Assembly (NCBI GenBank): GCA_964499685.1
Contig: CAZCLW010000001.1
Location: 119,859-183,858, forward strand
From: an uncultured Planctomycetales bacterium
GTDB lineage: Bacteria > Omnitrophota > Gorgyraeia > Zapsychrales > GWA2-47-8
Direction: 5' to 3'
DNA length: 64,000 nt
Shown: positions 1 to 60,608 of the stretch, one piece after another
Layout: each line of letters begins with the position of its first letter
How positions within the stretch are numbered: the stretch's first letter is position 1
Made by a program: the position numbers and the translations under genes
Notes under the pieces: model-generated
The model's input: only the letters and a program-made list of their open reading frames with translations
Told to the model about the DNA's origin: nothing
Database searches by the model: none

Positions 1-40
1 CGCCTCGGTCCTTGAGCTGCATCATGAGATATGGGCCGTC

Positions 41-3000
41 TTGAACCCGACCAAAACCCACGGCCGCAATCCATATCAATGGGTCGAACCTCAGGAGGGC
101 CGCAAGCGTCTCGGCCAGCATATTGAAGCCATACTTAAAGGCCGCGGTTCAGAGAAGACCGCCGGCCTTTTAAGACCGTTTAAAGTCCAGGCCAAGGCCC
201 AGTCCCGTGCGCCGCAAAACGGTTATATATTCATCGGCGCGGCGAATAAGAAAAATATTGTCATTAATTCAAGTCAATTTAAACCGGATTCATGGATCGA
301 AATAATCCCGATGTTCATTGATTCGAATGACCTCAGTAAAGGTGCTTATCTGTATTTTGTGACTGAGGATAAAAAGGTGCTGGAATATGAGTTCCATGCC
401 GACGGCAGATATGTCCGGCCCAGAAAGACCGACGATGAGAGAGCACAGGAAGACAGCCTGCAGGCCCTTCGCAATTATATTGAAGCCCTTATCAGCGGCC
501 GTCCTCTGACCGAAGCGGCATTGGCATTAAAGACATTTACGTTAAAGGCACGCAAACAGCAAGGCGCACGCGGCGGTTACGGCCAGCTCTACTTTGGTTA
601 TGTGGAAGGCCGCGCCGTCCTTATTACCTCCAAAAAATTCAAACCGGGCAAAGCGTTCGTCATCGAACCCGTCTTGATCGACCCTAAGGATGCTTCCAAA
701 GGTATCTATCTGCTTGTAAAGGTCTCCCGCAAAGAAGCGGTCCGTTATAATTTCAACAAAACCGGGGTTCCTTTCTTTACAGCTGTTGATCAGGAGGCCG
801 ATGAAAAGCAGCGCGGCAGCCAGGCCATCAAGAATTACATTGATGCGCTCTTAAGCGGAGAGGACCTCGCAGAGGCCGCCGAGGCTTTACTGGAATTCAA
901 AGTAAAGGTCCATAAGGACGCTGATACCGGAAGGATCGATCTTGGGCTATATCGGGGAGGTTTGATCCAATTGACCCGTCGGGAATTTGTGCCCAGGACA
1001 TTTGCCGTGATCAGGCCGGTCTTTGTCGATCCGCAAGACCACTCCAAGGGCGCTTTCTTTGAGATCATTCAGGAGGAGAAGAAATTTGTTTATGAGTTCA
1101 CAGCGCATCGTAGGCCGTACATTGAGGAGAAAAAATCCGATAAGGTCAAGGCATTGCGCGACAAGACCAAGCCGATCGTTGAATACGTCGCAGCTTTGGT
1201 CAAGCGGCAGAATTTACGGACAAAGACGGCGAATCTTACCGGATTCGATATGAAAGTCGGGTCGAACGGCCGGAAATCCAAGAAAGGTAAGCTTTATTTC
1301 GGTGCCTTTAAAGGGCGCTCAATTGCCATTCTGTCGAGCCGTCTTAAGCCGGAGACAACCGTCCGTATAGAACCTGTTCTGCATGATCCTCAAGATCTCA
1401 GTCTCGGAGTTTACTTGAAGGTCTTATTGCCGACCGGTGAAGATTTGGAATATGAGTTCTATAAAGAATTTGCGTATTTAAGAGTAAAATCGGATGCGCA
1501 GACGACGGCGTTAAGAAAGAACATTCAAAACATCCTTGATTATATCGACGCGCTTATCCGGAAGAAGAATTTGACCGTTTTTGTCGAAACCATGGCCTCC
1601 TTTACGATGCCGGTCGGTAAGCTGGACAAGGAAGGAAATTTCGGCAAGCTCTTTTTCGGTAAAGTCAGGGCCAATCGCATAGCTGCGATAGGCAATCAGC
1701 AATTAAAATATGGCACCAATGTTGTCGTCAACCCTGTCCAGGTCGATCCGAGTGATCCTTCCCGCGGCGTCGAGCTTCATATTATGCTGCCGGAAGGCAC
1801 AATTCTTGTTTACAAGATCAGCAAGACTCGCACACACTTCTTTGAACTCAAGAAGGATACGGTCAAGACCACCCGGCTCAGCCGGGGAAATGCCTTGGCG
1901 GATATCAAGAAACCAAATGTCGAATGGAGACGGGTACCGCTGACGATCAAGAAGGAGCTTGTTCAGGAATTGGCACGGCTGCTTGGCAAGCGTCCTTCCG
2001 AACTCATTATCAAGGATTTTGGCCGCAAGATTCCTTCCGTTGGCCGGACGCTTAACGGCTTGATCGACTCATACAGACAAGAAGGAGATGACCGCTTTGC
2101 CGCCGTCAGTCGATTGCAGGAAGATTTAGGGTTTACCCACAAGGTAACGGTCGAGGAATACCGGTGGGAAGAAAAATACCGGGACGAGGAGAAGGTCAAA
2201 GAAGCCTTAGACCTGAAAGACATTTCGCCAGCCGCTATGGAAGCCGTGGGTCTAAGCGGCGGTGTCAATAAGACGACGGAACGAAAGCTTTTTGCCGAAG
2301 TTAATAGAGGTAATGCGGCCGCGCGCGATGCCGCTTATCATTTATACCGCAATCTGGTCCCGGCCGCTTTGAGACGTATTGATAATGCTGTCGCCAATGC
2401 CAACGAAGGCGAATTTATCGCCATTGGTGACGCCGAACTTTTACGGCGTATCGATACATTCGGTCTGCGCCGAAGAAATTACAGGCTTTCGACCTATGCG
2501 TGGAAATCCATTACTAAGGTATTGCTGGACCATGCCAGAAAGTTCACGACTATTTCACTGGACAGCGCCATGGGTAAAGATGGGGATATGGCATGGAAGG
2601 ATATCGTTGTCAGCAGCCGTTCATTTACCAATAACGATGGGCACCGCCATAAACATCTAATACAGGAAGGCGGGTCCGATGTTGATGAAGCGGTCAAGCT
2701 TCTGGAAAAGAACCATGAGCCCAGCCGGAAGATCGAGGCCTTTATACTTCTTGCCCAGGGTGCGACGGTCGCCGATCTGGAAACAGAATATATTTTCGGT
2801 GATGAGTCTCTTCAGGCGATGCTGCGGCGCCAGATCAACATCATTCAGCACAATTCTCGCTGGGATAATACGGTGCTAAGAACGGCGCCAAAAGCCCATA
2901 AAGATCGCCATAAGCCTCGGAAGAATAAAGCCCCGGCCCTGCCGGTCAGCGATCCTGCCAAACCGCGTCCCGGAAAGACTGAAGCTGATGTCATTCAAGG

Positions 3001-6000
3001 TCTGCAAGAGCTTGCGGAAAAGGCTCTGGCGGGATGGAAAGCGGTCAGCGCAAAAGATCTGCCGAGTTTTGTCAAAGAGGTCCTGCAGTATTTCAAATAT
3101 ATCGGCGATGAGGTCCGTTATAAAAGACTGATGGCGCTGATCAGCACGAACCGTCTGATGATCGGCGATGATCATATCTTCTACGGCGCGAACGATTTTG
3201 ACGGAACAAACGAAGACACTTTCCGCATCTTTATTGCCCTTAACGATAATCCCGACCCTGCCGCAACCCTTATTCATGAATTAAACGGTGAAGATCACCA
3301 AGCCAATCTGGAAGCTGAACGACGCTTCCGCAATGTCGTTAAGAGCTCGTTAAATCCGGGCAAAACCATGTCCATGGGAAGTCCTTTCAGGGTTTATGAT
3401 CTTTCTCTTCCGATCCTCCTTGCCGGCCTGGGAATACCGTATATCTTGGCTTTATCCATGCCGGCCACAATTGTTTTGATTGTTATTGTCTTGATTGCCT
3501 TCTTAGCAGCCCTAAGTGATGCCGAAAATGTCGGAGACGTGATCGGAAAAACGATAGTTCTTTCAGTTGTTCTTCTGCTTATCGTTGCGGCGGCTTATTA
3601 TGTGGTCTGGCCTGTTGCGCTATTCGTTCTAAATCTCGCCTGGAGTGCGGTGTCATTTATCTTTACGATCATCGCGTATCCTTTTGTGGTCTGGTATGAC
3701 TTGTTTGTCATGTTTCAAGAAGAGCCGTACGGTTTCGGATGGCTAAAAGCAGCATTCATTGCTCTGGTAGCGGAAGGCGCTATTGTCGGTGTTATCAGTA
3801 AGGCGTTGACTTTGTTCTTTTCTTCAAAGGATAAAAAGGAAAAAGAAGAAGAGTTTGCGGAGGAAGATGCTATTTCATTATATGCCGTTATTTTTGGTAT
3901 CCCTGCGCTTGTCGGGCTTCCATTTATTATTTATGCGAATTGGGGCTCGATCCTTTCCAGTATAGGGATAGGAGCGGAATATTTCATTGGCTGGAATTTG
4001 CACTATTTGTTAGGTGCTCTATTGGTCATCGCCGCTGTTGGTCATATTTATAAGAAATTATCTCAAAATTATGATCCCAAAGATGTATCGACTATTATGT
4101 ACTTCCTGGCAGCTATTGTTGCGCCTGTGGGAGAAGAAATTGTCTTCAGGTGGCTGTTGTTTAATTTATCGATCTGGTTATGGATAGACTATTTCGGCCT
4201 TACACAAGAGTTTGTATATACCCTTCCCCTATTTGGGTACACCATTGATGGTATATCTCTCGGTCTCTTGATCGCTGTTCTTGCTAATGCCGAACTTTTT
4301 TATAAAGCACATGGTAGCGGTAAGTGGTTCCATCATTGGTTAATTGGAGTGGTTGCCTCATATTCTTATTTCAAGACCAACTCTTTGGTCGTTCCTATTG
4401 CAATGCATTTTATTTGGAATGCGACTGCCACAATCGTTGCGGTCCTGCTCAATGCGGTTGCACCTTTATCCATGGTCGATTTAAAAGGTATGTTGGGGTC
4501 TTCGGACGGGAAAGCCGTCGAGACAAAGAAAACCTCCTTCCCGCACGTTCTTATTCTCGGCAAGCCGGGCAGCGGCAAAAGCGAGGCGGGCAGGCGTCTG
4601 GCCCAGAAATACGGAGTTCCGTTCATTGATATCGGTGAAATTCTACGGCAAGAGCGGAATGCCCAAGCAAGACAAGAGAAAGTTCCTACCGAGAACGACT
4701 TTAAGCCCGGCATAGAGGCCTTAAAGGCCAGGCTGGCCGATTCGACATTGGTCCAAAGCGGTTTTGTCCTGGTGTGGGCGCCGCGCGATGAGGCTCAAGC
4801 TGAGTTCTTCACCGAATATCTAAGAAAGAACAAGATAGAAGACAGGTTGCTGGTATTTTGGATCCGGCTGCCTAACGCCGTGGCCAAAGAAAGAATACTT
4901 AAACGTGGATTGACTTCCGGCCGGACTGAAGACAAAGAGGCGGGTAAAGTTGCCCGCCGGCTGGCAAGGTTTTATCAATACGGGCACCCGGCGATCAAGC
5001 GAATGATGGAGCTCGCCGGATTCAAAGTGTTCTTTATTGAGGGGAAAAAGAGCGCTGACAAAGTATTCGTGTCCATGGTTAAAGCGGTGGACCGCCGTTT
5101 AGATAGGCAGCGCACTGAAGACCCAGTTCTTTTGGCCTTGGCCCAGATCGGCGAAAAGGAATTCCCGTCGTTCACTGAAGAAAAGTCCTCTCCCGAAACA
5201 TTCTTTATGCAAGCCTTAAAGGCTATTCATGAGTTGCTTAACGAACGCGCCCGGATTATGAGCGATCTCTTGCCGGCTTCCGCTTCTGCGGATGGACTGA
5301 AACGCTTCGGCGAAATTCTGCGCACTCATCAGTTGCCCGGCCTTGATGTCAAGGCTGTCTTGGATCAAATTTATGACAAAGCGGCCTTTATTGATCGCGA
5401 TGGGACTCGGCTGGAAGAGCCCGGGATGCTTCATTATGTAAAGATCGTTCAGGGTGCGGTCCGCCACTTCGACCAGTTCAAGGGCGACTTAGGATTGATC
5501 CAGAGAGCCGCCCGCACCATCTTCGATTATTACATTTTTTATCATTTAGCTCTGTTATCATTGCGGCTCTGGGACGATCCGGATAGTGCCGATAGGAAAT
5601 TGGACAAATTGCAAGGCCTGCTCGACCGGCTTCAAGGCCATGAAGGCAGCGGTCAGCAATTTACCGTGCATGCTGTTTCGCTGATTTCCTTCCCGATCGC
5701 CAAGCCCTCGCGCAATGAACAGCAATACATCGACCTCTACGGCCGTATCGCCGCTCTGGATCCCCGGCACCAGCTTCCGTTCCGCAAAATCCAGGCCGTC
5801 AATAACGGGCGGCATCTTCTGACGCAATTGACCGTCGCCGAGGAAAGTATCGTCCGTCAGGCCAATCGGGTGGATTATTTCATGATGCTCCATGATCTTG
5901 CGGCTTTGTTGAAAGTCTATGCTTCTCTCGGGCATCTTTCCATGCAGGACCATGCCAAACGGGAAGTCGTGGAAGGTATTCTTGCCATCCTTTCCGGAGA

Positions 6001-9000
6001 TATTGAAGCGTTTGTCGACGGCAGTATTTTCCGCGCCCTTCGGCCGTATAGTCCGCCCGAAGAAGTAGCGGTCTTTATTCAGGCTTTGGAAAGATTGCAA
6101 GAAATAACGAAAGAGGCGCTGATGCGCGATATGGAAGTATTGAACCCATCGACGCAGATCTTCTCACCGCTGGCGGAATTGATCATGATGCCGCATACGT
6201 TCCTGAATGCAATGGTCATGGCCTCGCTCTTCGAACGCGGACTCGAGGTTTTTGCTTATGACGATATTCACTTCAGCCGGGCTCAAGCTGTGGAAAATCA
6301 GCGCAGATTGGCGTGGGCCGAACGGGTCAATCCGTTGTGGCAAATGATCCAGGTCAGGGTCTTCCGCTATGATGTTAATACCGCACAGGATCTATTTGAT
6401 CAAACGCTTAATTACCTCCGGCACTCTTCTTCAGGTACCGTGACCGGTGCGTCTAAACCCGCAGTCGCCCATCTCTCCCTCGCCCAGATCGGCGAAGAGG
6501 AGTTCCCGCGGTTCAATCTGCTGCTTCGCTGGGTCCTTATGCTAAGCGGCGTCATCATGCGGCATGAGTTGGGCCATTTGATCGGCGCTATTCTATTCCA
6601 ACAGAAATTTAAGACTTCACTTAAGGAAGTCGTTTACACTGGCCGTATTACGGGAGTGCGCGGCCTTCCGCTCACCTTCGGGTTCCTGGCCAATCTCTTG
6701 ACCGCCACGGCCGCTTTCCTTCTCACGCTTTACTCTTATCCGTCTCATGGGCATCTGACCCTTGCCTTGTTTACCATCGGCACATTGGACTTCATAGCCG
6801 CTGTTGTGGAGCTGGTCGCCAAAGAAGGCGATCTTTATAAATACGCGCCGATCATCCGCGGCCGCCTGAAGCTCAGCGTCGGTTCCTTGCGCCGGATGCC
6901 GTATTTGGCGCATTGGCTGAAGATGGAGGAAGGGACTCTCTCCCGGCTGCTTTCCAGCCGCGATCCGAAAGACCTTAAGGAAATATTCAAGGTCATCGGC
7001 CGACGCGCCGGCCGCACCTACGGCGCCGATGGACTCCACGAAGTAAGCTGGCGCCTGGTGGATTATTTTGAATATCTGGAACGTGTCCAGGCCTCACCGT
7101 TTGCCAAAGTAAAGCCCTACAATCCGGAGAAGGAAAATAGCGCGGTCGAAGTGCAGCCGCTTGAAAAAGAATTCCGGACGAAGTTCGGCGAAAAATTCGT
7201 CTTTGAGCGGTATTGGAAAGTGATCCTGCGTATCGTCGAGGACAATCTCTCCCGCGGCCTGAGCCAAGAAGAATTCGCCGTCCTGCAGAGCTTTATCGCC
7301 CATAATCCGCTGATGGCCAATTATCTGTTCAACAGCTATCTCCTGAAAAACCAGGGGCTCTATGTGCCGCTGTGGATGTCTTACTCGGAGGGAGTGCGTT
7401 TCGGCAAACGCTGGAGAGAACTGCGTCGAAAGCATAAAGAAGCCATTCAGGCAGGCTTAAGAGGTATTTTGTCGACGAGAAAGATCGAGCAATATGCCAA
7501 GGGGATGATCGTTCCTTTGGAAGCGTATATGGAACATTCCAAATATCTGCAGCAGCAGTTTGCCGGCCGCAATTTCAGCGCCGGATTTTATCTGCAGTAT
7601 TTGGCCGAGACCGACTACTTCGACCTGGAAGCGACCGCGAGCCGCATCGAGGATTTATTGATCCTTATCCAAAAAGAGTCGCACCGCAAGAAATTCAGGG
7701 TCCTTCTGGCGGCCTATGACCGCTTGAGGGCCGTGCCCAGTATCGTCTTTGCCGCCGAGATGGTCAAATTCATCCTCGACCGGCAAGATCTTACTTTCGA
7801 GATCATCGGGCTGGATACGGATCCTCTGAATGTGTTGCAGGGCCGTGAAAAACTGGCCCGCTTCGGTATGGAAAATGCCGTGAGCCTCGTTGGGCCGGAC
7901 AATGTCCGCCTCGGCGAGATGGTCCGTAATCATGAAAGTATCGAGGCCAACGACCTGCGTGAATTGTTGTTCCAGACTGAACTGATCGAAAGCGGATTCG
8001 ACCTCATCATCTATTATGATCCGGGCCAATTGGTGGATCCGGGCCCGCCTTTGGCCAATACACGAAGGACGGCCGAGAATTTTGAATATGTCCTGAATCA
8101 AAACGGTTTATTGCAGCTCTTTGTCCGTGAATCGAAACTGCAAAAGAGCCTGGCGTTCCGTCTTTTGACACAGGCCGCCTGGATTCCGGTCCGTCAGGGT
8201 GTCGTCAGCGCTGTCCAGCCTACGGCGCGATGGGACCTTCCGTATAATCGGTATACCTTCGATAAGAAGGGTCTTATGGAGTTCAATGACCGGTTGTCCC
8301 TCCTCGGACAGGAGACAAACAAAGTGGGAGATCCCCATTACACAGCCGAACAGCTGGAGAATCTGGCTACATTGGGCGAGATAAAGCGCCGGATCGATAA
8401 CAGACGCCTGCGCACTGAGGCCGCCATTTCGGATTGGAACGGCGATAAAGCCCTTTGGTGGGAGAAGATCGTTATTGAATACCGCCGGGCCTTTACCGAA
8501 TACATCGCCCGCGGCGGGGAGCGGGACAGGTTTACCTTCGATGTCTTCCTCAATGGTGATGCTCTCTTTGCCGAATATAGAGAAGGACAGCCTTATCCTG
8601 ATGATCCATGGAGTGTCTTTAAGCTTCTTTCCGGCATGGACCCGAAAACAGGTGAAAAGATCGAGAATAAAGGGACCCCCGAAGGAATGCAGTTCCATTT
8701 GATCCTGGGTATGAACGAATATCTATTCCTGGCCGCCAAGATGGAGAATGCGATAGGCTTGCGGCTGATGCTGGGAGATAAATTCCGGCCCGGATTCGAG
8801 CGTCTGGGTGTTTCGGGCAACAACTTTGACGAAAGAAAACAAAGCTTTTTGAGCAATCCGGCCATCGATAGAATTTACCGCTGGATCCGTCAGAATGCGC
8901 ATTTGTTCAAGATCGGCGCCAACGGTACGTTATATATAAGCGGCGGTGCATCGATTGCCGTCAGCATGCAGAACTTTGACGAGACATTGTTCACCCAGTT

Positions 9001-12000
9001 GATGAGACTCGAGGAACATTTGCGCGAAGAAAAGAACGGACGCTTTGTTTACACGCTGACCAATGATCCGCATCTTCAGGCCATGGCCGGCTCCAAAGAA
9101 ACACTCGATTCCCAGTTCCGTCTTGGGCCGCGGCATCTGCACAGGCTGAGCACGCTCTTTTCATCGCCGTTCATTTGGCTCATTAATAACAGCCGGTTGA
9201 ACCGTGAGAACCTGCAGGGCGGCATCATCGGCGCCGGCGACGGTATGGTGACCATAGGACAAAAAGGCATCCGCTATTATACGCAGGCAGGATCCTCCGA
9301 AGGCCAGAAAAGCATAAAGAAAATTAAACTCCTCACAGGTGAGGAATTTGTGAAACAGTTGCACCAGCTGGTCGTTGAATTAAAGACCCTTGAGTATGAC
9401 CGGGGCCGCATGGACGAAGCCGCCAAGCGGCTCAGGCCGGGATTTGAAAGAGCGGTAACGTCTATTCTTAATCTGGCATCGGAGATCGGCCTCGGGCGTT
9501 ATAAATTGGGTACGCTGCGGGATAAGGTCCCGGAGAATATGAAATTCAAGATCCGCCGGGTCCTGGCCGGCCTGGGGCATTTCGTGTCGCCTGACAGTAC
9601 GCAGCGGCGAAAAGAGATCAGAGCGAAACGGCAGGCCAGATTGGATGAAGCCAAGCGGCGCCTTCAAAAATCAATAGACGCATTCGATATGGATGTAGTT
9701 ATCAAGGAATTGGAGGCCCTGGAAAAGGACCCGCGCAACGATGAGCGCATATTGGAAATGGGCGGTTCGTTTACGATAGAAGTCGAGATCAAGAACCGAA
9801 AGGGCATGCATTTGCGGCCGTCCATGATGGCCTTCACCCTCTTGGCCAGCTTTTTGGATCAAGTGACTGTGACCATAAAGAATGTCACTACCGGCAGCGA
9901 TGAGATAGACGGCCACACGCTGATGCAATTCCCGATGTTGGCGGCCAAAAAAGGCGACCGCCTTCGGGTTGTTATCGTGGCAAAGGATCCGCAGTACAAG
10001 CTGGAGATGTTGCAGGCAGCGGTTGCCTTAAAGATCCTTATTGAAGAAAGAATTTTCGGAGAAGTTGAGGGTCTTGAGAGGGAAGCCGAGGAGCTGTATA
10101 GCGCCAATCCAGAGGAGATCGTCAAAGAAGTTACGGCGTTCAGCGCTGATCAACTTTTTGAAAAACTGCAACCTCGGCCATCCGAAGGTCATGGTGAGCT
10201 CAAGACCGCATCCTGGGCCAGGGCGCCCTTAAACGGCCCGTTGCCGAGAAAACCCGGAATATATATCGATGCGGAGCGGACCATGCTCCTGCGCGATGAG
10301 GATATTATCGCTTTACGGCAGCAGGCAGAGGCGGCCTTGGCCAAGGAACCGTTGGCAAAAACCGTGACCCTTGACCTGCCGCGCGGCGGAGCGCTCAAAT
10401 TCTCCGTCTTCCATCTTGACCGGAAGATATTCCTGCTGCCTTTGAAGATCGCTTCCGACGGACGCTTAGGCGCGGACTTGGCCAGGGCCTTGGCCATGAC
10501 CGGCATCATGCTGTTCTATGATCTGTTCATTGTCCTTCCTGCTTCACATATCATCTCGCCGAATTTCTCAGATCACTTAGCTGCCAGTATCCCCGAACAT
10601 CAAATTATCGTTTTACACGATCGTCTGATACCGTTGATGCGCAAGCTCGACCGGATATTACCTGGCACCGGTTCGACTTTCCGTCAAGTTCTTCTGATGC
10701 ATGAATTGCGCCATGTCTTAAGATCGCTAGGACAAAGAGATGACGAAGAACATCATGAGCAGCTTGACCGCATGCAACTGAGGGTCTTATCGGTGTATGA
10801 GCAGTTTGATATTGGGCCATTAATGTCCTTGCTCTTGGAAGAAGGTGTCGTTGACGCGGAATTCAACCGACGGCTTGGTGCTGAGAATGCGGTCAATGTG
10901 AATCGTTTGCCGGAGCACATTGACATGGTAGAGATCATCCACGCGGATGAATTTTTCAAGGATTTGAGCCGATGGTTAGGTAAGAACGGGGATATTTCTT
11001 GGGATGGCGGAGAACGTTACGGAGTGGTCTGGGCCCGCCTTGAGTATGTTAAGAAGCAAGAATTTCATTCCATCCAGGTAATGGCGGAAGACGACTGGAA
11101 AGGCCGGTTTGCCGAAATGGCGATTTTGGACAAAAACCGCGGCGTCTGGTATCCGGAAAGAGGCGCTTTCGGTCAGCTTATTCTCAGCACTTACCGTTAT
11201 CATGACGGCCGCATCGCTGTATTGATAGAAGAAATTCAGCCTGACCATTACCGCAAACTGAGCCATACCCGCCGCCGGCATCTGGATATGTGGCGGCAAA
11301 AGGCGGTTCAAAAGATCGCGGAGTGGGTGGTTGCCAACGGCTATGAGCTTATCGCCGCCGGGCCGGAAATGATAAGGTCCGTTTACCGCAAGAAAAACGG
11401 AAAGACCTTATCGGATTTTGAAGTACGGAAAAATTATATGGAGCCTTATGATCCCGACTTGTGGAAAACACGACGGTTCATTACGCCGCACTTCCCGGAA
11501 TACGAAGCATTGTACGTATTCAGGAATGGACATCATCGGCCCGGTACCGCCAACGGGGACCGGCAGCCGCTCGCCATAACAACAATACCAACGATGGCCC
11601 ATTCTATCTCCTCTTCCGGCATGTTGGCGGTCGCCCAACGCTTTAAAGATGACCCGTCCATTGCCAGCCACTTCAGGATATTAGGCGATGCGCTGAAAGT
11701 GCTTGAGGAATATATCGCTTCAAGCGGCAAAGTGACAGGGCCGCCGATTGTGGCTTATAGAACCACAGACGGACAAGTCATCTGGAACTTAACCACAGAA
11801 AAAATCTTCGAGATTCTACTGGAACGCGGGCATAACAACGGCTTCATCCGCTTCGTCATCGATCAAATCAAATTGCATGAATCAAGAGAGACGGAAGCCG
11901 CCGCCATCAAAGCCCAAGTGGATGAAATGGCCGCTTGGTACGGCCGTCATCTTTCCGATAAGCGCCGTCAGGCCTTGTCCAGGTCCAGCAAAAGCCTTGC

Positions 12001-15000
12001 CCGCCTTGTTGCCTTCCGCCGGACTTATGAATATTTAAGCGCCGCTCTCCTCATTGAGCCAGAAGATCCTCAATGCACCGAAAATCTTTCCACTGCCGCG
12101 TTCTATCTTGCCAAAACGCGCACGCATCTGGCCTATATCGCGGGTATTGTTGATCTCCTGGAGAGAAGCTTCGGTCTGGATACAGAAAACCTCAGCGCCG
12201 AGCGTAAACGTCTCATGCTCGCCGCCGTATATTCCATCGGTATGAAAAAGGCCATTGTCCCGGCGCAGGAAATAATAACTATCCTTGAACAGGTCATGAG
12301 GAGCCGGTTCGACCGCCTGGAAGATGCGGCCTTGCGCGATAAGATGCTGGTTGCCGTCTATAACGTAGCCATGAAAAAAGCACAAAGCTCCCTGATGACG
12401 GTCATTGAATATTTCTGGGAACAATTCGGTATCGATATCGGCCAAGAGAAGGATGCGGCTTTGAGAGATCAAGCCATCATCGCCATGTATACGATCGCTT
12501 CATGGAAAGCGGAAGATCTGTTGCAGCTCATCACAGGCATTCTTAAAGAACGGATAGACACACCGCCCGATACTCTTCCCGTTTTAGCCAGATTGAAGCT
12601 TGTCAGATATATTTATCGCTTCATTCAGGATAACCGCAAAGAATTTAATGCGATAAATGATGCCGAGTCGAAGAGGGCACGCGCGAAGGAATTGATGGAC
12701 CCATCCGCTATCGCGAAGATCCTGAACCCTGCGCCGGTCAGGAAAGCGGTTGTCGGCGTAAAACGGCCGAAGGCCAAAAGACCGGCCCATGTCCCGATGC
12801 GCTATAAGACCGTCGATGTGATCAAGCTTCAAAGCCGACAGGAGCTGCTCAGTAAACAGATTTACAAAGAACTCAGGGATGAGGAAGGCGTTGTCCGTAG
12901 TACGGCATCCTATGTGTATCGGATATTTGAGATCAATTTGGATTCGGATATCCTGGTTTTATTGATGTTGCAGGAAGTGTTCGGCGACAGGATCAAGATC
13001 GAGAGCCTTAAATATAAACGGGACCTGGCCGGAGAAGGAAGCTTTTATCTGGGCGTGGTTGAGGAAGAACGCGTCGATCCTGTTTCGTATGAGGAATATC
13101 TGGTGATCGAGCCGATCGCGCTCTTTTTCGCCCACGAACCGACACGCACCCTGCTTTACGCCCAGATGCAGCATTGGGATGCATTGATGAGCTGGCAGGA
13201 CAATGATGCGCGGACTTTAACGGAATTGCTCCATGAAAAATTATTCTGGCCGCAACAACACAATGTTTTCGTGAACGGGCGTCAATATGATGTGAGCTAC
13301 AGCTATGTGGATATAGAGGATAGACCCGTATCCCTCGAATCGGATGCGCGCTTTTGGGCTGTCCTGCATGATGTGAGCGTCGGGTTCACCAAAGATTCCG
13401 GACTTTCTAACGATGACATAAATGGCGGCCGGTTGTTGGGCCTGTCCTGGCCGCTGTATCCGTTTATTTTCGCCTCAATGATTGATTCCCCGCAGGCCTT
13501 GATGCAGTTATTCGCTATGGCGGCATTAGCGATCTTGCTCCTTTTGGGCTACTCGGTGTATAGGCACAAAAATAGCCCGATAGTCATTAACAGAGGACGC
13601 GGCTCCATTGATATGGGGCCGGAGCATCCCATTGCCGATGAGCATGTGCGGATGATGGACCATCTCAGTGCTTATGAGCTCGCCGGATTGACCAAGGGAT
13701 TGCCGGTGGTCATCCTTAATTTTGATCCGCACCATGATAAATATGTCTCGGCGGCGAGCGATTTCCATAGTGCCGGATCGCATAACTGGGCGTATTTGGC
13801 GGAATTGGAAAAGCGCGCTATCGTGATCACCGTTATCGTCGCTGATGGAAAAGAATCCCGCGGCGGCTTTATAGGTAAGAATGGAGAATGGAAAGAGCCG
13901 CGTGGTACGGTCAAGGCGATTGATTACCGGCCCATTACGGCAGAAAACTATACGATCCTGCCTGAACTGAAAAATGTCCGTGTCGCCGCGGGCGGCCGCA
14001 TGTATTCTTTTGCCGATTATCCCGGATTGGTCGTTATCAATGTCGATTATGATTTCTTCAGCTTAAAGCCGAGACAGGGAAGAAAAGGCGACAGGATCAT
14101 TGACCGCAAAGGCTATCATCTCTCCGAAGGGGACGTCGCCGCTCAATTTGAATATCTGGAGCAATATCTGCTTCGGCAGAAGATCCGGGCTGATGATGTC
14201 GTCGGTTTTGTCTCGCCGAGATATTTGAACAGACAGCATGAGGACTTTCATCCCGCCTGGGTGCCGATGGTCGGGAAGCATTTTCTGAAATTCCGTAGGG
14301 CTATGCTCCATAAGGCGCCTCCGGCGGTCCAGCATATATCCGGCGTCAGACAGCTGTTTCTTGCGCTTGCTTTTAGCGCTTTGTCCATGTTGTCTCTCAG
14401 TCTTCCCGGGTGCTCGATCCCGCCTCAACCTTCGGAAACACCGAAGGTGCACGAGGTCATTTTCTTGTCGCCGGAAGAAAGAGTCCGAAGTCTTCTGCAG
14501 GGGATCCCCGGGAACAACAATAGCGATCAGCTCGTCGACATAACAGGAAGATTGGTGGACTTCGGCGACAGGGCCCTGGAACCTTTGATCCAGGCCCTTG
14601 ACCATGAGCATGAAAAGGTGCGCCAAGTGGCCATAACGGCTTTGGCCGAGATCAGCAGTGAACGGGCACAACAGGCATTAGTGAACGCCGTTTCTAATGA
14701 AAAGATCGCGTCCAATGAAGACAACAGGCTTGCCTTGAGCCGGGTCATCGAAGACAAGATACTGCCGGCCGCTGTCGAGCCATTGCTTGAGATCTTGCGG
14801 AATTCAGGCAACAGTAATTTTGTGGCTGCCGACATCTTAAGCCGCAGTAATGATGCGCGGATCATCGAACCTTTCTTAGGCCTCTTGAAAGATGACAATT
14901 CCAGCAACAGGCTTCAAGGAACGGCTGTGTATGGATTGACCGCCTTCCAAGACCGGCGCATTACTACCGCCTTATTGCACATCGTGGATACGGCCGACAT

Positions 15001-18000
15001 CGCGCATTTGAAAATTAAGGAAGGCCAGGCTGATATAGAGGACCGCAATAGTTACCGGCTTTACATGACCCTTCTTAATCTCGATGCCCTCAGGGTCGAA
15101 CAAGATGAAGCCCTGCGGGTGATCCAGTCCATCATGCCTTTATTGGCCAACGAGCAACTGCCTGAAGTTTATGCCGTTCCCGCCTTTAAGGTATTGGCCA
15201 GCATCGTCACAAACCATCCCCAACAATTTGCCGATCATCCGCAAACAGACGTTCTTGGCCCCGAAGCGGTCAGCCGCACGGTCCGCCGTATCGCCGGGAC
15301 CGGCGTGCTGGAGAAAGATTACAGTGAATTTCCCATGCATGAAAAAACAGCTGCCGTCAGGATCATTTCCGCACTGGGGACATTCGAAGAATTTAAGACG
15401 TATTTGGCCAAAGATGCGGTCGGCTTGCATGATCCCCATCAGGACATCAGGACCGAAGCTTATAAAGGTTTGAGACGTTTCGGTAAAGATGCCCTGCCTT
15501 TATGGCTCGCCGGATTAAGGGATACCGAATTAAAAGTCTGTGACCTGTGCGTGAACGCTCTTATAGCCATCGGCAAGGAAGTTGAGCCGCATGTCTGGGC
15601 GATCATAACCGATCCGGCGGAGACCATACAGGCAAAAGCCCAAGCCTTCAGGATCATCGTTGAATTCGAGCTTGGGGCCTCCGACGAGGCGACAAAATTT
15701 ATTGAGTCTTTATCGCATCCTCTGCCTTTCGATCTCATCCGGGCTTTGGGCCGGACAGGTAATACCGCTGCCGTTCCGACCTTGATCGAAGTCATGAAGA
15801 ATAAGGACGGCCATTACGGCAATATAGACTGGCGCGAAGAGGCCGCGAAAGGATTAGGCAGGCTTAATGATGCCCGCGCGGTCGAGCCGCTGGTCAGGTA
15901 TCTGTTCGATGTCGGCAGTTTTGAAAGAAGCGCCGCGCGTCATGCCCTGACCCAGCTGTCGCGGCTTACCGCCCAGGAGATCGTTCCCGGCGTTTTTGAT
16001 AAAGCCCAATTAAAGGTCCTCAACACCAAGCGGGCCCGTCAGGTCCTGAATATCTTGCATGAAAGCGTTCCGACCGTCGATTATTCCATTGAATATATCG
16101 GACAAATGCTCACCCAGAACGATAACGAACAGCTTCGCGACGCGCTGGACCTGTTCAAGAAAAGTAAAGAGCTTAACATTCTTTATCCGTTCCGGTTCTG
16201 GGACGGGGATATGGACCTGGACCTTATGCGGCTCGTTATCCAGAACAGGCTCGATCATCCGGCTGAAAAAGATGAGCGGCCGCTGGCTGTCATCATTGTC
16301 CCGCGCAGCGACTGGAATGCTGCGTTTGACAGCGATGCCCTGAGAAAAACGATCAAGGAATTAAATAAGTCTTATTATGTTCTTTATTATGAGGTTTCGA
16401 ACGAAGATGAGATGATCAGAAACTTCCTGGCGGCAACGGAAAAGAAAAAAGCCTCTGTCCTGCTTTTGGGCGGCCATGCGAACATGTCCAGCATGTCCTT
16501 CGGTGCGGAAGATCCGGCGCAGGCGGCGGTCAAAGAAGAAGATGAATGTCTCGTCATTTCCGTCTCAGATAAGGACAAATTGCAAAATGCCGGGATTTCC
16601 GTCCGTCTGGAAGACGGAGGGATCGTCATTCTCGGCGCCTGCAGTTCAGGCAAGGGTAAAGGAAGGGAGCAGAACCTGGCCAACATGTGGCGGGAAATAT
16701 TCCCGCAGGCCCGGGGTATCTGGTCGCCTGTCGAGCCCACACCGTTACCGGATTTCAAGTTTAACGCCGATGGGAAAGTGGAGGAGGTCAAATATCCTTT
16801 CAGCGACACCTATATCGGCTGGATCGATCAAATGATCGAAAACGGCGTTATCCAGCCTGACTTTATTAAAGAGGAGAAGCGAAGCGGTGCCCTTGCTTCG
16901 ATGTATCCGGGAGAAAGATCGACCTTGTGGCCGTTCTTGCTCATGGCCAGCGCGGGCGTCGTGATGATGATGTCCTCGAGCTTCAACCGGCGCAAAGAGG
17001 ATGATTTTGATCTGGAAGGGGATGTCAATGACCGGCCGTCCCTGACTTCGCCTTTCGCCATCCCGCACGTAAATAAAGCGCCCGATGCCAAACGGATCTT
17101 GTTGGAAAAGTTATTGGCAGCCTACGGTCTGCAGCCTCTAAGCGAGAATCTTGGCAGAGAGCACATTATGGTCATCCTGGCGGAATGCAATTGCGACCAA
17201 GGTTGGGTGGTTTTCAAGACCCCGCGTTTCCGTGCGGGCGAGAAAGAATTTGAAGCCGAGAACCATTTGATCGCTTATCTTATCGGCCAGGGTGTTCCGG
17301 CTGCCGCTGCTCTTAGAAATAAAGAAGGCAAGATCGGGACGGATATCGAGGGAACAATCTATGTCGCTTATCCGTATATTCAAGGACGCCATGTCGAGTT
17401 AGGCGTTATGTCGCCTGAAGAAAGACGCAGCGCCGCGCAGGCCTTGGCCCGGCTTCATAATGCAACCGCCAAGTATCAGTCCTTGCCGGAGTTGGGAGCG
17501 GATGAATTCCGTAACGGACTTTTGCATAAAGGCATATGGACCATGGGAGAACTGGTCGCCGGTTTACCGTTATCCGAAAGGCCCAAGAGCGCGCTGGAAG
17601 AATTTGTGGAAGAAAATGTTGTTGAACTGATTGAAGAGCTGACCCGTCTTGAACGGGAATTGCCGTCGGAAGTTTATACGACGCTCCCCAGTCAGGTCAC
17701 CCATGGGGACCTTCATCCGGGCAATATCCTGTTCCGCGAAGAGAAAGTGGCCGGCATCCTCGATTGGGAGTTGGCGCACTACGGGCCGCGCCTCGGCGAT
17801 GTGGCTGGTCCCATGTCCTACAGCCGGCCCGAGGACGGGACTTTGCTGGACCTGAATGCGGTCCGTACCTTTATTACCGCCTATCAGGAAGCTGCCGAGC
17901 GAAAACTGACCAGAAGAGAGCTTGAGCTTCTTCCGGTCTTTTACAGACGGGATTTTCTCGGCACTATCCTTTATCTGGTCCAGTTCCATCTTAGGGATGA

Positions 18001-21000
18001 TTATCAAGGAAATTTTGTGAAAGCGGTGCTGGCCAGTTTGCGCAAAATAGACCGGCTTGATTGGGATAGCTTGCATGATCTTTCCGCGGATTCCCGCGCT
18101 CCTCTGGCTGTCAGCTGGCTGTGGCTGCCGGTCATCACATTGCTCCGGCGCGTTATGGGTGACCGGGCCATTGCGGTCACCATCGGTATTATTGAAGAAG
18201 TGCTGCTCTCGGCGCTGGTCGGTTATGTCTTCTACCCGCTTTTCGGCCGGGTCTATGCCCACTTAATGCATTATCCGCCGGGCATTTATGCGCCTGGCTC
18301 TTCGCTTTGGGCGGCCGGCTTTGCATCCGCGGCAGGAATTCTGCTTGCCATTTTATTGCATACCCAAAAGACCTACAGATTGGTCGATGGAAAATTGATC
18401 CTCAGCGAAAAAGAAGTCGGGCGGCCTCATTATCCTTTACGCATGCTGGAAATTTTTGCCGAAGAAAGGGCCCCTAAGGACCTCAAAGTCCTGGCCAAAA
18501 TTTTCAGTATTATCCGCATTGTTTCGGGCGGCTTTCTCTATATATTAGGCCCCATCCCGTCGATCTTGACCGCGGCCCTGATGCACGGCCTGTATAACGG
18601 CTTGATCGCGCCTGTTTTTGGCGCGCCCCTGGCCATGGCGGACATAGTAGATATCGGAATAATCTCCGGTACTGTTGATGAGCGTCTGGCCGAGATCGCG
18701 AAGGTCGGTCGTGACCGGTCCAAGTTCGAAGATGTGAAGGCTGTGGGCCATGTGATCATCGCAGGGACCTTGCCCAAGTCGGGGAATCTGGATATCGGGA
18801 AACGTCTTGGAAAATTCCCGCTGCATGGTGGAGAAAAATATGAATTGGAAATGGCCGGCGGCTTCCCGGTCAGGATTACTTTCAACCAAAGCGGCCGGAT
18901 ATATCCGTTTTATCGTATCTGGAATGCCCGGACGGGTGAATTGATCGATACACATACCGGAAAGATGACACGCGCGCGTATGCTGAACTACGGAGATATT
19001 GTCACGGAAACACAATTGAACGAAGCAGGGAAACTCTCGCTGGGCGGCGGGCGGCCACGGGTCAATGGCCTTATGCCAAGGCCACAAAAGGCCTGGGCCA
19101 GGATAGAAAAACATGCCGAAGAAAGAGTTATGCTCTATGTGCATGGGGGGCTGGTTGTTAAGATCTGGTCGATGACTTCTGATCTTAATGAAGACTTTGT
19201 TCTGGTCTGGGATAAAAAACAGCGCCGATTTATCTCCTCCTATCTAAATTATTTGCCCTCCGACGAATATGCCCTGGTGACATCCGCACATGAGTTTTAT
19301 AAAGAACGCCTGACCAAATACGGTTATCTGACGTTTGGCGGCCGCGAAAATGCCGTTTATTTCGGTGAGGAGTATGCTTACGGAAGGGTCATCGTCCGCA
19401 AAGTCCGTTCGGCCGCTGCCGGGCGTATTTTATTCGGCGAAGCGGTTGCGCTTAAAGATGGTTCGACCCGGACTTTGCGTCCTGTGTATCGCGTCAATCC
19501 TGGAGCGGCGGAGGATTCCTTTGAACGCGGTGAATTGATCGAAGGGGTGAATGATCTTGGCCGGAATTTGCAAAATGAATGGAAGGATTTTATCGTAGGT
19601 GAGACGGTTTTAACGGACAGCGCGCTCTATCAGGCGGGTTATCTTGGACGGTTCTCCTACTTCCCGGATGCGGTCGTGGAATTGAAGTTTATCGACGGAC
19701 AGGCGCGCTATGTGCGGTTCATCCGTGATGCACAAGGAAATCCCGTTACCGATATCCATGGCCGCGATCTCGTCGTTGATCTTCGCCGGGATATTTTGGA
19801 GCAAATGAAGCAGCATTCAAAGATTTATTTTGAACGGAAGATCCATAAGGCCCAAGAGCTGCTTGTCCTGCCGGGACAAAGGCAAAACCTGGTTGAAGCC
19901 CGCCGCATGCTGACGCGCCGCGTACTAGAACGCGTTCCGGCCGGAACGGAGATCGCAGAAGCCGCCGACGCTGTTCATCAAGCCATGGGTGCAAAATTGC
20001 ATTCCCTGCGGGTAAGTCAGGGCACTTATTGGGCTGTTACCAGGGCCGGTGCCGCCCTGGAGAGAGCACAGGTCTCCGTTCAAAGCGGAAATCATGCCAA
20101 GGCCGTCCGTCTGGCGCGCGATCTTCTGGAAAGGATCAGGCGGTTCAAAAAACTTAACCCGTCGGTAAACGGAGAATTTGATGATATTGTCGCGGCGGCC
20201 GAATTTATTCGTCGGACAGCTCTGGCCGGCGTTGAGAATGGACGAAAGGTGGAAGTTGATTCCATCCATACGATTTATAGAGAAAAGCCGGTGTATACCC
20301 AGCCGGAAGAGGAAAGGCTGTGGAGCCTGCTCGCGGACGGCCAGAACCATGCCCTGCTGCCATTGACGGATATATATATTTGGGAGATCAAACAGATCGC
20401 CAAAGAATTCACCTGGGAATACAGCGATTTTTATGAAGATCTCGTACATGAAGGCATTGTGTACTTCTTGGAAACCGCCGGAACATACGGTCTGTGGCAG
20501 AGAGAAAGCCTGCGTGAGCTCATTTTTGCCCGATTGCGTCAGAGGTTTGATGAATTAAGAAAAGAGCGCAACCGTATCATCTACCGGACCAGATCTTTGC
20601 AGGCGCCGCTGGGCGGAAATCAGGACGGAAAACCGTTCACTCTGGAATCTTTACTTTACACAGAAGATGACATTGACACGACGGAAACTGTCGAAACTTC
20701 GTCGAGATCGATGTCTTTGATAAAGCCGGCCGTCTTCACGGTCTTTTTGGCCGGATTATTAACGACCGGCGCGAAGGCGCAAGCGTTGGGTAATGATCTT
20801 GCCGTGCAATCGCAGGGGGCAGATTGGCCGGCCATATGGCACGCCTTGGGCGCGAGCGCTATCTTATTGATCGTATTTGTTGCACAAATGATCCTCGTTG
20901 CTTTATGGCACGAGATCGGCCATGCGCTCCCTACGCTCTTATTCGGCGGAAAAACAAAGATCAGGCTCACGTGGAGCGGCGCCGAGACCGTGCGTGATAT

Positions 21001-24000
21001 CGATCCGCGCGTATTCGACGGATGGAGGGGATGGAAAGGCTTCTTGATGGACGCCGGCGGCCCGCTCTTTACGTTCTCCCTCATTCCATTGAGCATTTGG
21101 ATGATGACGTTGGAATGGGGCGCCCTGGCTTTCCCGGTGGAACTTATCCTTTGGGCTGTCTTGCTGGAGAATGTGATGATCGGTTTTATGAATGCCGTAC
21201 CGGGAGTGTTATCGGAAGAAACCCACGGCAAGACCGACGGGAACAGAATAGCCGACCGCATTCTGGAGAGGCGTATCCAGCGCTCCTTTAAGCGTCTGGA
21301 GCGCGCAGGGAAACTGAAAGGCGCTCTTATTTCTTTGGATCTGGGTCCTCATCTCTCCCTGATTCGCGCCAGAGGATTCGTTGCGGTTGCGCAGGCTTTG
21401 GCCTATGTACGGTCAGGGGTCAAGGTCCGCGCCGGGCCGGCGGAATTTTTTGCCCGGAATCCCGGTAAATACGTTGTCAGCTATAAAGGTACCCTATACA
21501 TCACTCCTGAATTCCAAGACAATGTCCACTTGTTAAGGTTCCTGATCATCCGGGAACTGACAAGCCTTTTAGGTTTCCCTAAACATTTCAAAGACCAGTT
21601 TTATAATGTCATCAGATCGGGCCATCCCGATGAAGAGATCCAATTGTGGGCGGAGCGCCTGGCGATCGCGCCAAAGCCGCCCGCGAGATCACCGCTCCTG
21701 CAGCTCGATTCCACGCGGACGATCGGATATAAGTTCTTCGCCCGTTATTTCGGCTGGCATGCGCCTCCGGCATGGCTCATTGATATTGTCTTTACCGCCG
21801 CGTATGAGCTTCCGCAGACCTTCCGCCCCATCCATTTCTATCTTAAACACGATAGCCGCACACTGTCGCAAAAAATTTCCCGCGCCGCCGGTATCGCCGG
21901 AATTTTGACCGGAATGCTGGCGGCGGGCATCCTTTTCCATTGGATGATCATGCCATTGGCTAATGTGTTCGTTCACGCTTTCTATAATATGTTCTTCGCC
22001 GCTAACTTATCGCTGCCGAAGCGGCCCTCCAAGGCCGAGCGGGAATGGGAGACCAGGCCTTTGGACATGATCATGGCCTTTTTCCGCGATATCATGACGG
22101 TCAATTTTGACGCCATTGAAGTGATCACCGCGCGCAAAGATAATCCCGAGGATACCAAGATCAAACGGCGTTTCACGACGGTCAGAAAGCGCCTGGAACG
22201 CCTGCATCAGCGCCTGAGCGATTGGAAGACAAGTACAAATTTGTCCTTGGCCCGCAATGCCCGTCCGGAACGAGATCAGATCTTACGTGACCGCCTGGCC
22301 TTGATCGAAAAATCCCTGCAAAGGTTCGAAAAGGCCGTTGAATTTTTCCAGAAAGGTAACGGCCCTGTGGTCGGCCAGATCCTTTTCGCCGTCACCGGTA
22401 CGCTCATGAACGAGTATGAAAGAATTTCAGACCAGCAGATCGCGCGTTCCCGCCAATACCGCGCCCGGCAGAACCTGGATTATCCGACGGGACGGGGACG
22501 CATTTGGAAAGACAGGCGCACGCGTCAATTCATCCTCTCCAAATGGGGCCATCGCCAGGTCGAGCCGGCCAAAGGCGTTAAAGTGACCCGCCGCGTTCTA
22601 CAGGAGATCCTCTTCGATACGTATTGGGAAATGCTGCGCTCTTTGGATCACACCTTTGATTCCCAATTCAAGAACCGGGACCACATAAGCAATATCCTGA
22701 AAGCGTTCAAGGCGCTCAGCGACCGATTGTCCTCTCAGTCGGGAAGAAAGCTTTCCGATGATCTGGTCAAAGAAATTTCAGCGCAATTGGAAGCCCTTCA
22801 AAAAATGGTATCCGGTCCGCGTGTCATCATTGAATTAAAATTGGCCCAATCGGCAGTGGCGACCGCACAATATTTATTCGAACGAGGCCGGTGGCGCTTC
22901 AGCCTTAAGATCATCTTGCTGGCGCAGCGGTTTTTTGCCAAGCGCCTACAGGAGATCGGCTCGATGATCGGCCGGAACGAAGACGGTAAGCTGGCCGTCA
23001 TCCGCAACATGATAGCGGAAAGAAACCGTTATATCCTGGCCCGCATCGCAGACATCAGGGCAGGGAACCGGAAAGCGGCTTTAGGATTGGCCAGTTATCT
23101 GAAAAACAATAAAGACCCGGATCTGGCCGGCGTGTACACATTGATCGTTGCGGCCAGGCAGGCGCAGGAGCAAGGCCGCCATGAAGACGCCCGGCGGTAT
23201 TTGCTCTGGGCCGAGCGCCGGGTCATCATCTCCACCCGTTTGCATGAATTTATGGCCGATTACCGCGATCGGGTCAAGGACTTGAGGCTTTCCGGTACGG
23301 AAGAAGCTGAGGCCTCGGCCAAAGCCTTCCGCGAGGCTTTTGAAGGATTATTCAAGGAATACCAAGACGAAAAACGCCATAAAAAACTTTGGGCTTACCG
23401 TCTTTATCAGGCGGTATTCGTTTCTTTGCGCATCAACAGTCCGGCCGATCCCCAAAAACGCGTTTCCAATCCGCTGTTTGAATTGTTCTCCGTCTTTATC
23501 GGTATCCTTGAGCTCAAAGAGATCAAAGATATTTTAAGGGCTTCAAGACTGGTCAGTAAGCGCCGTACACCGCAACTTTATAAATTCTTGGAGCAGATGC
23601 AGAAGAAATATTCTCAGATAAGCCAACTATCAAAAGAGGAAAGGCATCGCCTGATCGTCCTCATCGCCCAAGACCGTCAAAAGGAAGCAGGCGGACTGTT
23701 CGGTCCGCGCGTTGACTTCCTGGCGGAAGTCCGGAAAGCGGCGGTCCTAGCCGGGCTGACCAATGGTTTTAACGGCGTTCCGCAGGACGCCTCTTCCAAC
23801 GGAGAAGACAGGGAAGCGGTCATGCGGAAGATCGAAGAACTCGGCGGACTTATTGCCATCGCCGTTCTTTACGGAGGATTTATCGAGCGCGAGGAGATCG
23901 TGAAATTGTACGATGTGGAACGAATGGTCCGTCGGTTGCAGGAACGCGTTTATTTCCTGCGCGGCCCGCCCGAATTGGACGTTGTCAATGTGGTCGAAAC

Positions 24001-53046: not shown

Positions 53047-53460
53047 CTATTGAAATCCCGCAAAAACACCGGTGCCGAACTTTTCCAGTACTTCATCCAA
53101 CACTTGCACAAAACAGATCTGGCTTGTGTTATCGCCCCCGTCAAGAGTATTCCGTGTGGCGCAGAGGGTATAGCTGGTGCCGTCGGAGGCAATATCAATG
53201 CTGTAGGTAAAGTGAGAGTTCGGCATATTGAGATCGGGCGTAAGAAAACTCTGACTGATATCGCAATTATAAACTGCCGAGCCGGAAAGCCCATGGCAAT
53301 GTTCAAAGCTGCGCCGTAATTGCATCATTATGTTGAGCGCCTCGGCGCTCCGGGAATATTCGATCATACGGTACATGCGCGGCAGGCCCAACGCAGCCAG
53401 GACGCCCACGATGATAATGACAATAATGACTTCCAAAAGAGTAAAAGCTTTCTTATTCAT
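53047..53460 (-). CDS. Divergent prepilin-type pilin-like protein, paralog 4 (about 137 aa from MNKKAFTLLE; the ORF extends to 53487).
   Basis: MNKKAFTLLEVIIVIIIVGVLAALGLPRMYRMIEYSRSAEALNIMMQL.... It lacks the C-terminal YEGMEW motif of paralogs 1-3. TGATG coupling at 53460. Its stop at 53047 is 2 nt from the giant gene's stop (convergent). Confidence 0.7.
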   Translation of the reverse strand: MNKKAFTLLEVIIVIIIVGVLAALGLPRMYRMIEYSRSAEALNIMMQLRRSFEHCHGLSGSAVYNCDISQSFLTPDLNMPNSHFTYSIDIASDGTSYTLCATRNTLDGGDNTSQICFVQVLDEVLEKFGTGVFAGFQ

Positions 53461-60546: not shown

Positions 60547-60608
60547 TATCCTGCCTTGAAAAGCCCCTCTATATATGCTATCTTTTTAACAGTTTTTAAA
60601 CTAATACT

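Follow-up and report, generated by a model that had tools for sequence, protein, structure and literature searches.

A divergent HPr-like domain without phosphotransferase-system partners in cis in a giant multi-enzyme protein from the Omnitrophota

In the phosphoenolpyruvate (PEP)-dependent phosphotransferase system (PTS), the phosphocarrier protein HPr is familiar also as part of fusion proteins (FPr, MTP, DhaM), and in these the HPr moiety is 'usually' joined to EIIA, with or without Enzyme I (EI) (PMC2405797). Regulatory versions of the system (PTS-Ntr or 'group R'), which have no PTS transporters, are found in Planctomycetes, Chlamydiales and other lineages (PMC2405797; PMC13104625). A further point of reference is a class of giant multi-enzyme proteins described in the Omnitrophota, the 'Archaeovorins' or multi-enzyme metabolic cluster class (bioRxiv 10.1101/2023.11.21.568195 and 10.64898/2026.06.07.730766). 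Here we report on a 64-kb stretch of contig CAZCLW010000001.1 from an Omnitrophota genome assembly (GCA_964499685.1), the whole of which is referred to as the window, where a single giant open reading frame (ORF) very probably carries an HPr-family domain. A preliminary description of this DNA had held HPr to be normally a stand-alone protein; the fusions named above show that this is not always so, but they usually carry EIIA, which is absent here. Judged from sequence, it would represent a new architecture for a known family, namely an orphan HPr with an intact active-site loop in a multi-enzyme protein of more than 17,000 residues (aa), recurring in a second giant protein of the Omnitrophota.

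An HPr-family domain with an intact active-site loop

The features on which the argument depends are the following (positions in nucleotides (nt) of the window and residues of the giant protein):
nt 2..53044, + strand: giant ORF; first listed start TTG at nt 41, frame open to the 5' end of the window
nt 9767-10060 (aa 3243-3340), + strand: HPr-family domain; Pfam envelope aa 3246-3328 (nt 9776-10024)
nt 9803-9820 (aa 3255-3260), + strand: predicted active-site loop G-M-H-L-R-P, unique in the giant protein
nt 9917-9919, + strand: Thr3293 at the regulatory Ser46 position, giving H-T here versus K-S in canonical HPr

From its listed start the giant ORF is a single + strand frame (nt 41-53044) of at least 17,667 aa, which runs without a stop codon across 53 kb. 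No in-frame stop occurs from window base 2 to nt 41 either, where the translation ahead of the listed TTG reads ASVLELHHEIWAV; therefore, the gene probably extends upstream of the window and the protein would be longer than 17,667 aa. A PTS-HPr domain with an equivalent of His15 had been proposed at nt 9755-10040. We noted that nt 9755 keeps to the reading frame of the giant ORF, that the translation at these coordinates reads GGSFTIEVEIKNRKGMHLRPSMMAFTLLASFLDQVTVTIKNVTTGSDEIDGHTLMQFPMLAAKKGDRLRVVIVAKDPQYKLEMLQAAVALKILIEERIFGE, and that the segment corresponds to aa 3239-3333 (EMGGSFTIEVEIKNRKGMHLRPSMMAFTLLASFLDQVTVTIKNVTTGSDEIDGHTLMQFPMLAAKKGDRLRVVIVAKDPQYKLEMLQAAVALKIL). The proposed location proved correct, with the domain itself being slightly wider, at about nt 9767-10060 (aa 3243-3340).

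A search of the 95-aa segment with the Pfam profile for PTS-HPr (PF00381) gave a significant match with a score of 43.7 bits (E 3e-11; gathering cutoff 23 bits), covering profile positions 3-79 of 81, and the match persists at 36-38 bits when the segment is embedded in 1,000-aa and 4,700-aa pieces of the protein. When all PDB sequences were searched by phmmer, NPr of E. coli (5t17) ranked first (E 4e-5) and HPr proteins came next. With aa 2901-3800 as the query, phmmer was also run exhaustively against a library of 1.84 billion representative proteins and recovered free-standing HPr proteins of 94-118 aa at library-wide E-values of 1e-4 to 5e-5, and the HPr part was also matched there by FruB-like tandem-HPr proteins (P0025, P0032 and P0033). 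Aligned pairwise by BLAST with nine free-standing HPr proteins, the domain is 35-41% identical to them along its whole length, with E-values of 1e-14 to 1e-17, and the best identity within the 1.84-billion-protein library was no more than about 41-44%. The profile match, together with the predicted fold described below, upholds the initial assignment to PTS-HPr with a His15 equivalent, and we regard it as highly probable that the segment is a genuine HPr-family domain.

Within this family the domain is a divergent member, because its score against TIGR01003 (39.5 bits), the stricter HPr model of NCBIfam, is below the cutoff of 47.9 bits. All NCBIfam equivalog models (NPr, FruB, DhaM) scored far below their own cutoffs, the NPr (PtsO) model NF008146, for instance, reaching 35.4 bits against a cutoff of 119, and by these scores the domain is not an orthologue of any named PTS protein. 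When the giant protein and all six frames of the window were scanned with a custom hidden Markov model, no further, degenerate copy of HPr emerged.

To place individual residues we used an alignment of 12 sequences: the window domain, its counterpart in an Omnitrophota relative (see below), five of the free-standing matches, the two HPr domains of protein P0035, and three references (E. coli HPr, E. coli NPr and B. subtilis HPr). G13, His15, Arg17 and two later positions are invariant in this alignment and Pro18 is nearly so; the window domain carries all of these invariant or near-invariant residues. Its His3257 (nt 9809-9811) is the equivalent of His15 and its Arg3259 that of Arg17, and the loop conforms to the G-[LIM]-H-x-R-P pattern typical of HPr. 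Helix 2 of the domain, TLMQFPMLAA, is close to the SIMQMSMLAA of the nearest free HPr proteins. Two departures stand out: the K-S-[IL] context of Ser46 that typifies HPr regulated by HprK/P is replaced by H-T-L, and the usual E-G-x-D turn ahead of the last helix by A-K-D-P.

Word-indexed homologue searches with a 295-aa query, a 103-aa query and a two-sequence alignment drew in no relatives. As these searches provided no alignment, AlphaFold was run on the single sequence. The resulting model of the domain has a pLDDT of 75, a pTM of 0.69 and strands and helices in the order seen in HPr, corresponding to the predicted open-faced beta-sandwich (beta-alpha-beta-beta-alpha-beta-alpha). A Foldseek comparison of the model with the PDB returned HPr, Crh or NPr as all of the top 25 matches, with TM-scores of 0.5-0.58, and entries 9s8b and 9s8k are among the structural matches. 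The predicted fold thus agrees with HPr and supports the assignment, though as a model it is not decisive alone.

The shared module, absence of PTS partners and probable origin

About 1,000 residues on either side of the HPr domain match no Pfam or NCBIfam model. The following elements could nonetheless be delineated in this region by comparison with other proteins:
nt 6971-10063 (aa 2311-3341), + strand: conserved module of ~1,030 aa ending with the HPr-like domain, found by BLASTP against locus L002
nt 8681-9445 (aa 2881-3135), + strand: orphan 'domain X', 39.7% identical to the relative and conserved beside the HPr-like domain
nt 9446-9766 (aa 3136-3242), + strand: variable charged linker, probably helical; 29% identity to the relative and 44 gap columns
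nt 10196-10876 (aa 3386-3612), + strand: downstream orphan domain with the HExxH-like motif HELRH; relatives P0022, P0026, P0027 and P0029
nt 10946-11440 (aa 3636-3800), + strand: recurrent orphan domain with more than 20 relatives (P0002-P0021), E 1e-27 to 1e-8

The locus L002 is contig JAQUAH010000031.1 of the metagenome-assembled genome (MAG) Candidatus Omnitrophota STC_8, all 14,271 nt of which form one ORF of 4,757 aa. The overlapping NCBI protein, P0001 (MDD5238152.1, 'alpha-amylase family glycosyl hydrolase, partial [Candidatus Omnitrophica bacterium]'), is identical to the L002 ORF across an overlap of 2,159 aa. In a BLASTP alignment of 1,141 columns the module is 27.7% identical to the 4,757-aa ORF (E 5.5e-80), and the alignment ends just after the HPr domain. 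A genome scan recovered L002 as the sole relative and two metagenome scans with alignments of the module added no more; searched against the PDB, the module profile was matched in its HPr part alone. The HPr-like domain of the relative scores a sub-threshold 20.5 bits in Pfam, yet retains the loop as S-G-Y-H-M-R-P. The two HPr domains share 35.5% identity, rising to 44% in the N-terminal half that holds the active site, while the Ser46 position is not conserved, with the relative having Pro or Met thereabouts.

Upstream of the HPr domain, domain X has no Pfam, NCBIfam or PDB sequence match. The motifs SFLSN..IDRIYR, SGGAS, EEHLR and LKTLE.DR are common to both of its versions. A single-sequence AlphaFold model of aa 2850-3345, spanning domain X and HPr, had a pLDDT of 39 and was unusable; in the linker, long helices are predicted by a low-confidence model. 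We also noted a Rossmann/methyltransferase-like stretch (FEIIGLDTDP ... DLIIYYDPGQL, aa ~2540-2700, nt ~7660-8140), which lies in the module of both giant proteins and is detected by no Pfam model. Downstream of HPr the order of domains diverges between the two proteins, because the P0001 counterpart of the HELRH domain sits ~1,300 aa further from HPr. This orphan domain is soluble, has no Pfam match and is shared by P0001. Relatives of the recurrent domain at aa 3636-3800 are proteins of 259 to about 2,900 aa, and no Pfam family was found in nine scanned relatives of the downstream orphan domains; the conserved region at aa 3636-3800 may constitute an undescribed domain family.

Partner domains were sought by scanning the whole giant ORF in 1,000-aa pieces with Pfam at E <= 0.5. 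Across the 17,667 aa we detected no EI/PEP-utilizer, EIIA, HprK or Dha domain, so that the combination of HPr with EIIA and/or EI in one polypeptide that typifies multiphosphoryl-transfer proteins is lacking. There were likewise no PTS genes among the other ORFs of the 64-kb window, neither ptsN nor hpf lies near the HPr domain as it would in the rpoN-hpf-ptsN-npr context of NPr, and the upstream 2,600 aa of the relative hold no PTS partner, their only domain being an aromatic amino-acid lyase domain (318 bits in the L002 ORF, upstream of the HPr module). The relay inside the megaprotein that the preliminary description suggested is therefore unsupported, since neither the giant protein nor the window yielded an EI, EIIA or HprK domain. 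With no partner in cis, the donor, if the domain is phosphorylated at all, would have to work in trans or be situated upstream of the window.

The provenance of the domain is indicated by its free-standing relatives. Among the closest of these, gene neighbourhoods were read for P0040, P0045 and P0047: the first two genes lie in hpf (Ribosomal_S30AE)-PTS_EIIA_2-HPr clusters and the third in an hpf-PTS_EIIA_2-HPr-Enzyme I cluster, with the Enzyme I gene directly after it. This hpf-EIIA-HPr(-EI) gene order is the layout of a regulatory PTS. Given the operon layout of the relatives and the first rank of NPr among the PDB matches, the most likely ancestor of the domain is a regulatory HPr/NPr rather than a sugar-transport HPr; the domain would share the NPr lineage without being an NPr equivalog.

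Possible functions of the domain

The analysis shows membership of the family, an intact loop, a predicted fold like that of HPr, a conserved counterpart in a second giant protein and the lack of a PTS partner in cis, whereas phosphorylation, its donor, a cytoplasmic location and the regulatory output are inferred. We propose that the domain is a tethered phospho-histidine switch that reports PEP status, a mechanism which in its full form we consider to have an even chance of being right. The host protein would be a membrane-associated multi-enzyme giant, with the HPr domain as the C-terminal end of the shared module and situated in the cytoplasm. A soluble Enzyme I would act in trans on His3257, adding a phosphoryl group from PEP in a reversible reaction, and the phosphorylation state of the tethered domain could modulate neighbouring enzyme domains via contact; as an alternative output, the phosphoryl group might be handed to a histidine on a partner or target. 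The domain would then be a built-in sensor of PEP/pyruvate status and not a component of sugar transport. Retention of SGYHMRP in the relative, despite an identity of only 27.7% across the module, speaks for this proposal. There are precedents for both kinds of output: HPr of E. coli binds glycogen phosphorylase and phosphorylates a histidine on it (PMC13324651), and NPr inhibits LpxD by direct binding (PMC13104625). Both giant proteins bear alpha-glucan-processing domains, GDE_C in the window and an alpha-amylase family domain in P0001.

Several observations weigh against the switch. The alpha-glucan domains are 900 to 13,000 residues from the HPr domain, and their link to it is for this reason thematic only. 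Neither the giant ORF nor the remaining window supplies EI, EIIA or HprK, and the TIGR01003 score is, as noted, below the cutoff. In the sole homologous giant protein helix 2, which is part of the EI-binding face, has strongly diverged, and the conservation evidence consists of two sequences only. Furthermore, hydropathy and the positive-inside rule give contradictory answers as to the membrane side of the HPr domain: the hydrophobic blocks nearest to it lie around aa 2160-2259 and aa 4486-4504, and K/R-rich sequence trails both of these transmembrane (TM) blocks (aa 2241-2259; aa 4486-4504). An extracytoplasmic location would exclude PEP-dependent phosphorylation.

A less probable but still plausible alternative is that phosphorylation has been lost and the domain persists as an HPr-derived binding or scaffold domain, which makes contacts within the giant protein or with other proteins in the manner of Crh or of unphosphorylated HPr and NPr. 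Regulatory binding partners are known for unphosphorylated NPr and HPr, and such a role is consistent with the lack of a PTS partner in cis or in the window, with the sub-cutoff TIGR01003 score and the change of the E-G-x-D turn to A-K-D-P, and with the great difference between the two giant proteins in helix 2 and at the Ser46 position. However, the G-x-H-x-R-P loop is unaltered in both proteins at about 28% overall identity, and the half of the HPr domain with the active site is its best conserved part. Crh, which is among the PDB matches of the window domain, is an HPr paralogue that works without histidine phosphorylation and has lost His15, unlike the window domain.

The immediate surroundings of the domain raise another possibility, to which we would attach a rather low probability: domain X and the HPr-like domain could form a self-contained new phosphotransfer pair, in which X is a novel enzyme that gives or receives the phosphoryl group independently of Enzyme I. 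The two are adjacent and collinear in both giant proteins while the downstream domains are shuffled, no other part of the module is as well conserved as X (39.7% identity), and described HPr fusions usually set HPr beside a phosphotransfer partner (PMC2405797). Yet X matches no kinase, PEP-utiliser or PTS family, no P-loop was seen by eye, its model is unusable, and two sequences are too few to separate functional linkage from shared ancestry. We consider it equally improbable that X, linker and HPr-like domain together constitute a new phospho-histidine switch controlling a membrane-anchored megaprotein outside the classical PTS; were this true, HPr chemistry would have been recruited outside that system.

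It had also been suggested that the domain mimics an HPr of a host or prey cell, the giant protein presenting or delivering a look-alike that interferes with a bacterial host PTS. An action on prey cells has been proposed for giant proteins of the Omnitrophota (bioRxiv 10.1101/2023.11.21.568195), and the contradictory membrane topology around the domain would be compatible with such a role. We nevertheless find this reading very unlikely. The library maximum of about 41-44% identity leaves no close relative and therefore gives no sign of recent host capture; the domain is part of an old module that recurs in a second giant protein of the Omnitrophota, and its nearest relatives are HPr proteins of regulatory PTS rather than the sugar-PTS HPr of any particular host. 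Moreover, the hosts proposed in the preprint are archaea of the Methanosarcinales (bioRxiv 10.1101/2023.11.21.568195), and in a survey of 19 archaeal genomes PTS proteins were found in Haloarcula only (PMC2405797). Finally, a chance resemblance or false-positive profile match has a negligible probability and is effectively excluded by the PF00381 match (E 3e-11, about 20 bits over the gathering cutoff), the library-wide phmmer E-values below 1e-3 in 1.84 billion proteins, the full-length BLAST alignments and the presence of the catalytic motif at the expected place.

Returning to the tethered switch, HPr and NPr are proteins that couple enzyme activity to the PEP/pyruvate status of the cell. 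The wider interest of the switch is that histidine phosphorylation may place megaproteins under the control of central-carbon status, which offers a testable handle on the regulation of giant proteins. Current annotation hides such parts, as illustrated by P0001, which is labelled an alpha-amylase family hydrolase only, with its HPr-like domain left unannotated. An HPr or PTS domain goes unmentioned in the main text of both Omnitrophota giant-protein preprints and in one supplementary file of the 2026 preprint, and we found no paper linking Omnitrophota to the PTS. Because a mosaic of diverse domains is already familiar in giant proteins, HPr adds one more domain type to them, and we consider the significance to be moderate.

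The rest of the window and comparison with known systems

About 12 domain types score above their own Pfam cutoffs in the giant ORF, HEAT_2 being among them, and ~50 hydrophobic, TM-like peaks are spread over it in hydropathy plots. The principal domains outside the module, and the features beyond the giant gene, are as follows:
aa 1351-1461, + strand: Rce1-like domain (Pfam)
aa 1503-1653, + strand: adenylate-kinase-like P-loop domain, ADK (Pfam)
about aa 4850-5300, + strand: HEAT repeats (Pfam)
aa 5724-5950, + strand: APH (Pfam)
several sites in the giant ORF, + strand: methyltransferases (Pfam)
about aa 11860-12080, + strand: alpha/beta hydrolase (Pfam)
aa 13386-13424, + strand: Sigma70 region 4, Sigma70_r4 (Pfam)
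about aa 13923-14157, + strand: GT2 (Pfam)
about aa 14825-14986, + strand: Pkinase (Pfam)
aa 16085-16469 (nt 48293-49447), + strand: GDE_C, amylo-alpha-1,6-glucosidase, glycogen debranching (Pfam, 336 bits)
nt 53047-55002, - strand: four tandem type IV pilin-like genes (Pfam N_methyl), with N-terminal methylation motifs FTLLEVIIVIIIVGVLA
nt 60600-64000, + strand: long ORF of at least 1,133 aa running past the 3' end of the window, with a signal-peptide-like N-terminus and no Pfam match

The HPr domain had been described as lying between TM blocks and kinase-like domains. This is accurate only if distances above 1,000 residues are allowed for: ADK (aa 1503-1653) and APH (aa 5724-5950) are the closest kinase-like domains recognised. 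The GDE_C domain lies near the C-terminus of the giant protein, ~13,000 residues from HPr, and has a thematic tie to the control of glycogen phosphorylase by HPr; an alpha-amylase family domain is present in P0001. Within a hydrophobic three-helix block at aa ~2160-2260 (nt ~6520-6820) we noted a HELGH sequence, an instance of the HExxH motif, and this block resembles an intramembrane metalloprotease of the M50/site-2-like type; a weak match to Peptidase_M50B is found elsewhere, at aa 6949-6973. The pilin-like genes follow immediately after the giant gene but are encoded on the other strand, and the window also encodes a TPR/coiled-coil protein, a PCMT and a DUF4139 protein.

Compared with FPr/FruB, MTP/PtsA and DhaM, the window protein is alike in having an HPr fold inside a larger polypeptide. 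It differs from them in that its HPr has no detectable PTS partner in 17,667 aa, and in that the NCBIfam equivalog scores of the domain are tiny against their cutoffs. With the free-standing regulatory HPr and NPr proteins (PtsO-type) it shares the G-x-H-x-R-P loop and a helix 2 of the form (D)G(K/H)(S/T)(I/L)MQ...MLAA, and its C-terminal L(I/V)EE..FGE tail matches that of some of them, such as P0034. Unlike these proteins of about 90-118 aa, the domain is one part of a chain exceeding 17,000 aa, has no EIIA-Ntr, EI, hpf or rpoN close to it, and shows H-T in place of K45-S46 and A-K-D-P in place of the E-G-x-D turn.

The only other HPr fusion without a partner that turned up is P0035 (GCA_964374045.1; L004 6001-8778), a protein of 925 aa with two C-terminal HPr domains and an orphan N-terminal region of ~790 aa. 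It is comparable in that its polypeptide likewise has no PTS partner domain; identity between its HPr domains and that of the window is 30%. However, P0035 is far smaller, has its HPr domains in tandem at the C-terminus, the second with H-M-R-L in place of H-x-R-P, and shows no relationship to the giant protein in its N-terminal region. A metallophosphoesterase-like GD..G motif can be seen in that region.

In architecture the window protein matches the Omnitrophota giant multi-enzyme proteins, and the sole relative of the HPr-bearing module comes from the Omnitrophota MAG STC_8; both point, indirectly, to an Omnitrophota origin of the window. PPDK-type domains, reported to be frequent in the Archaeovorins, were undetected in the window protein. 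In other respects it has the features of this class, namely a very long ORF of well over 10,000 aa, many interspersed TM-like helices, and diverse enzyme domains along the chain, including HEAT, glycosyltransferase, methyltransferase, kinase and sugar-metabolism domains.

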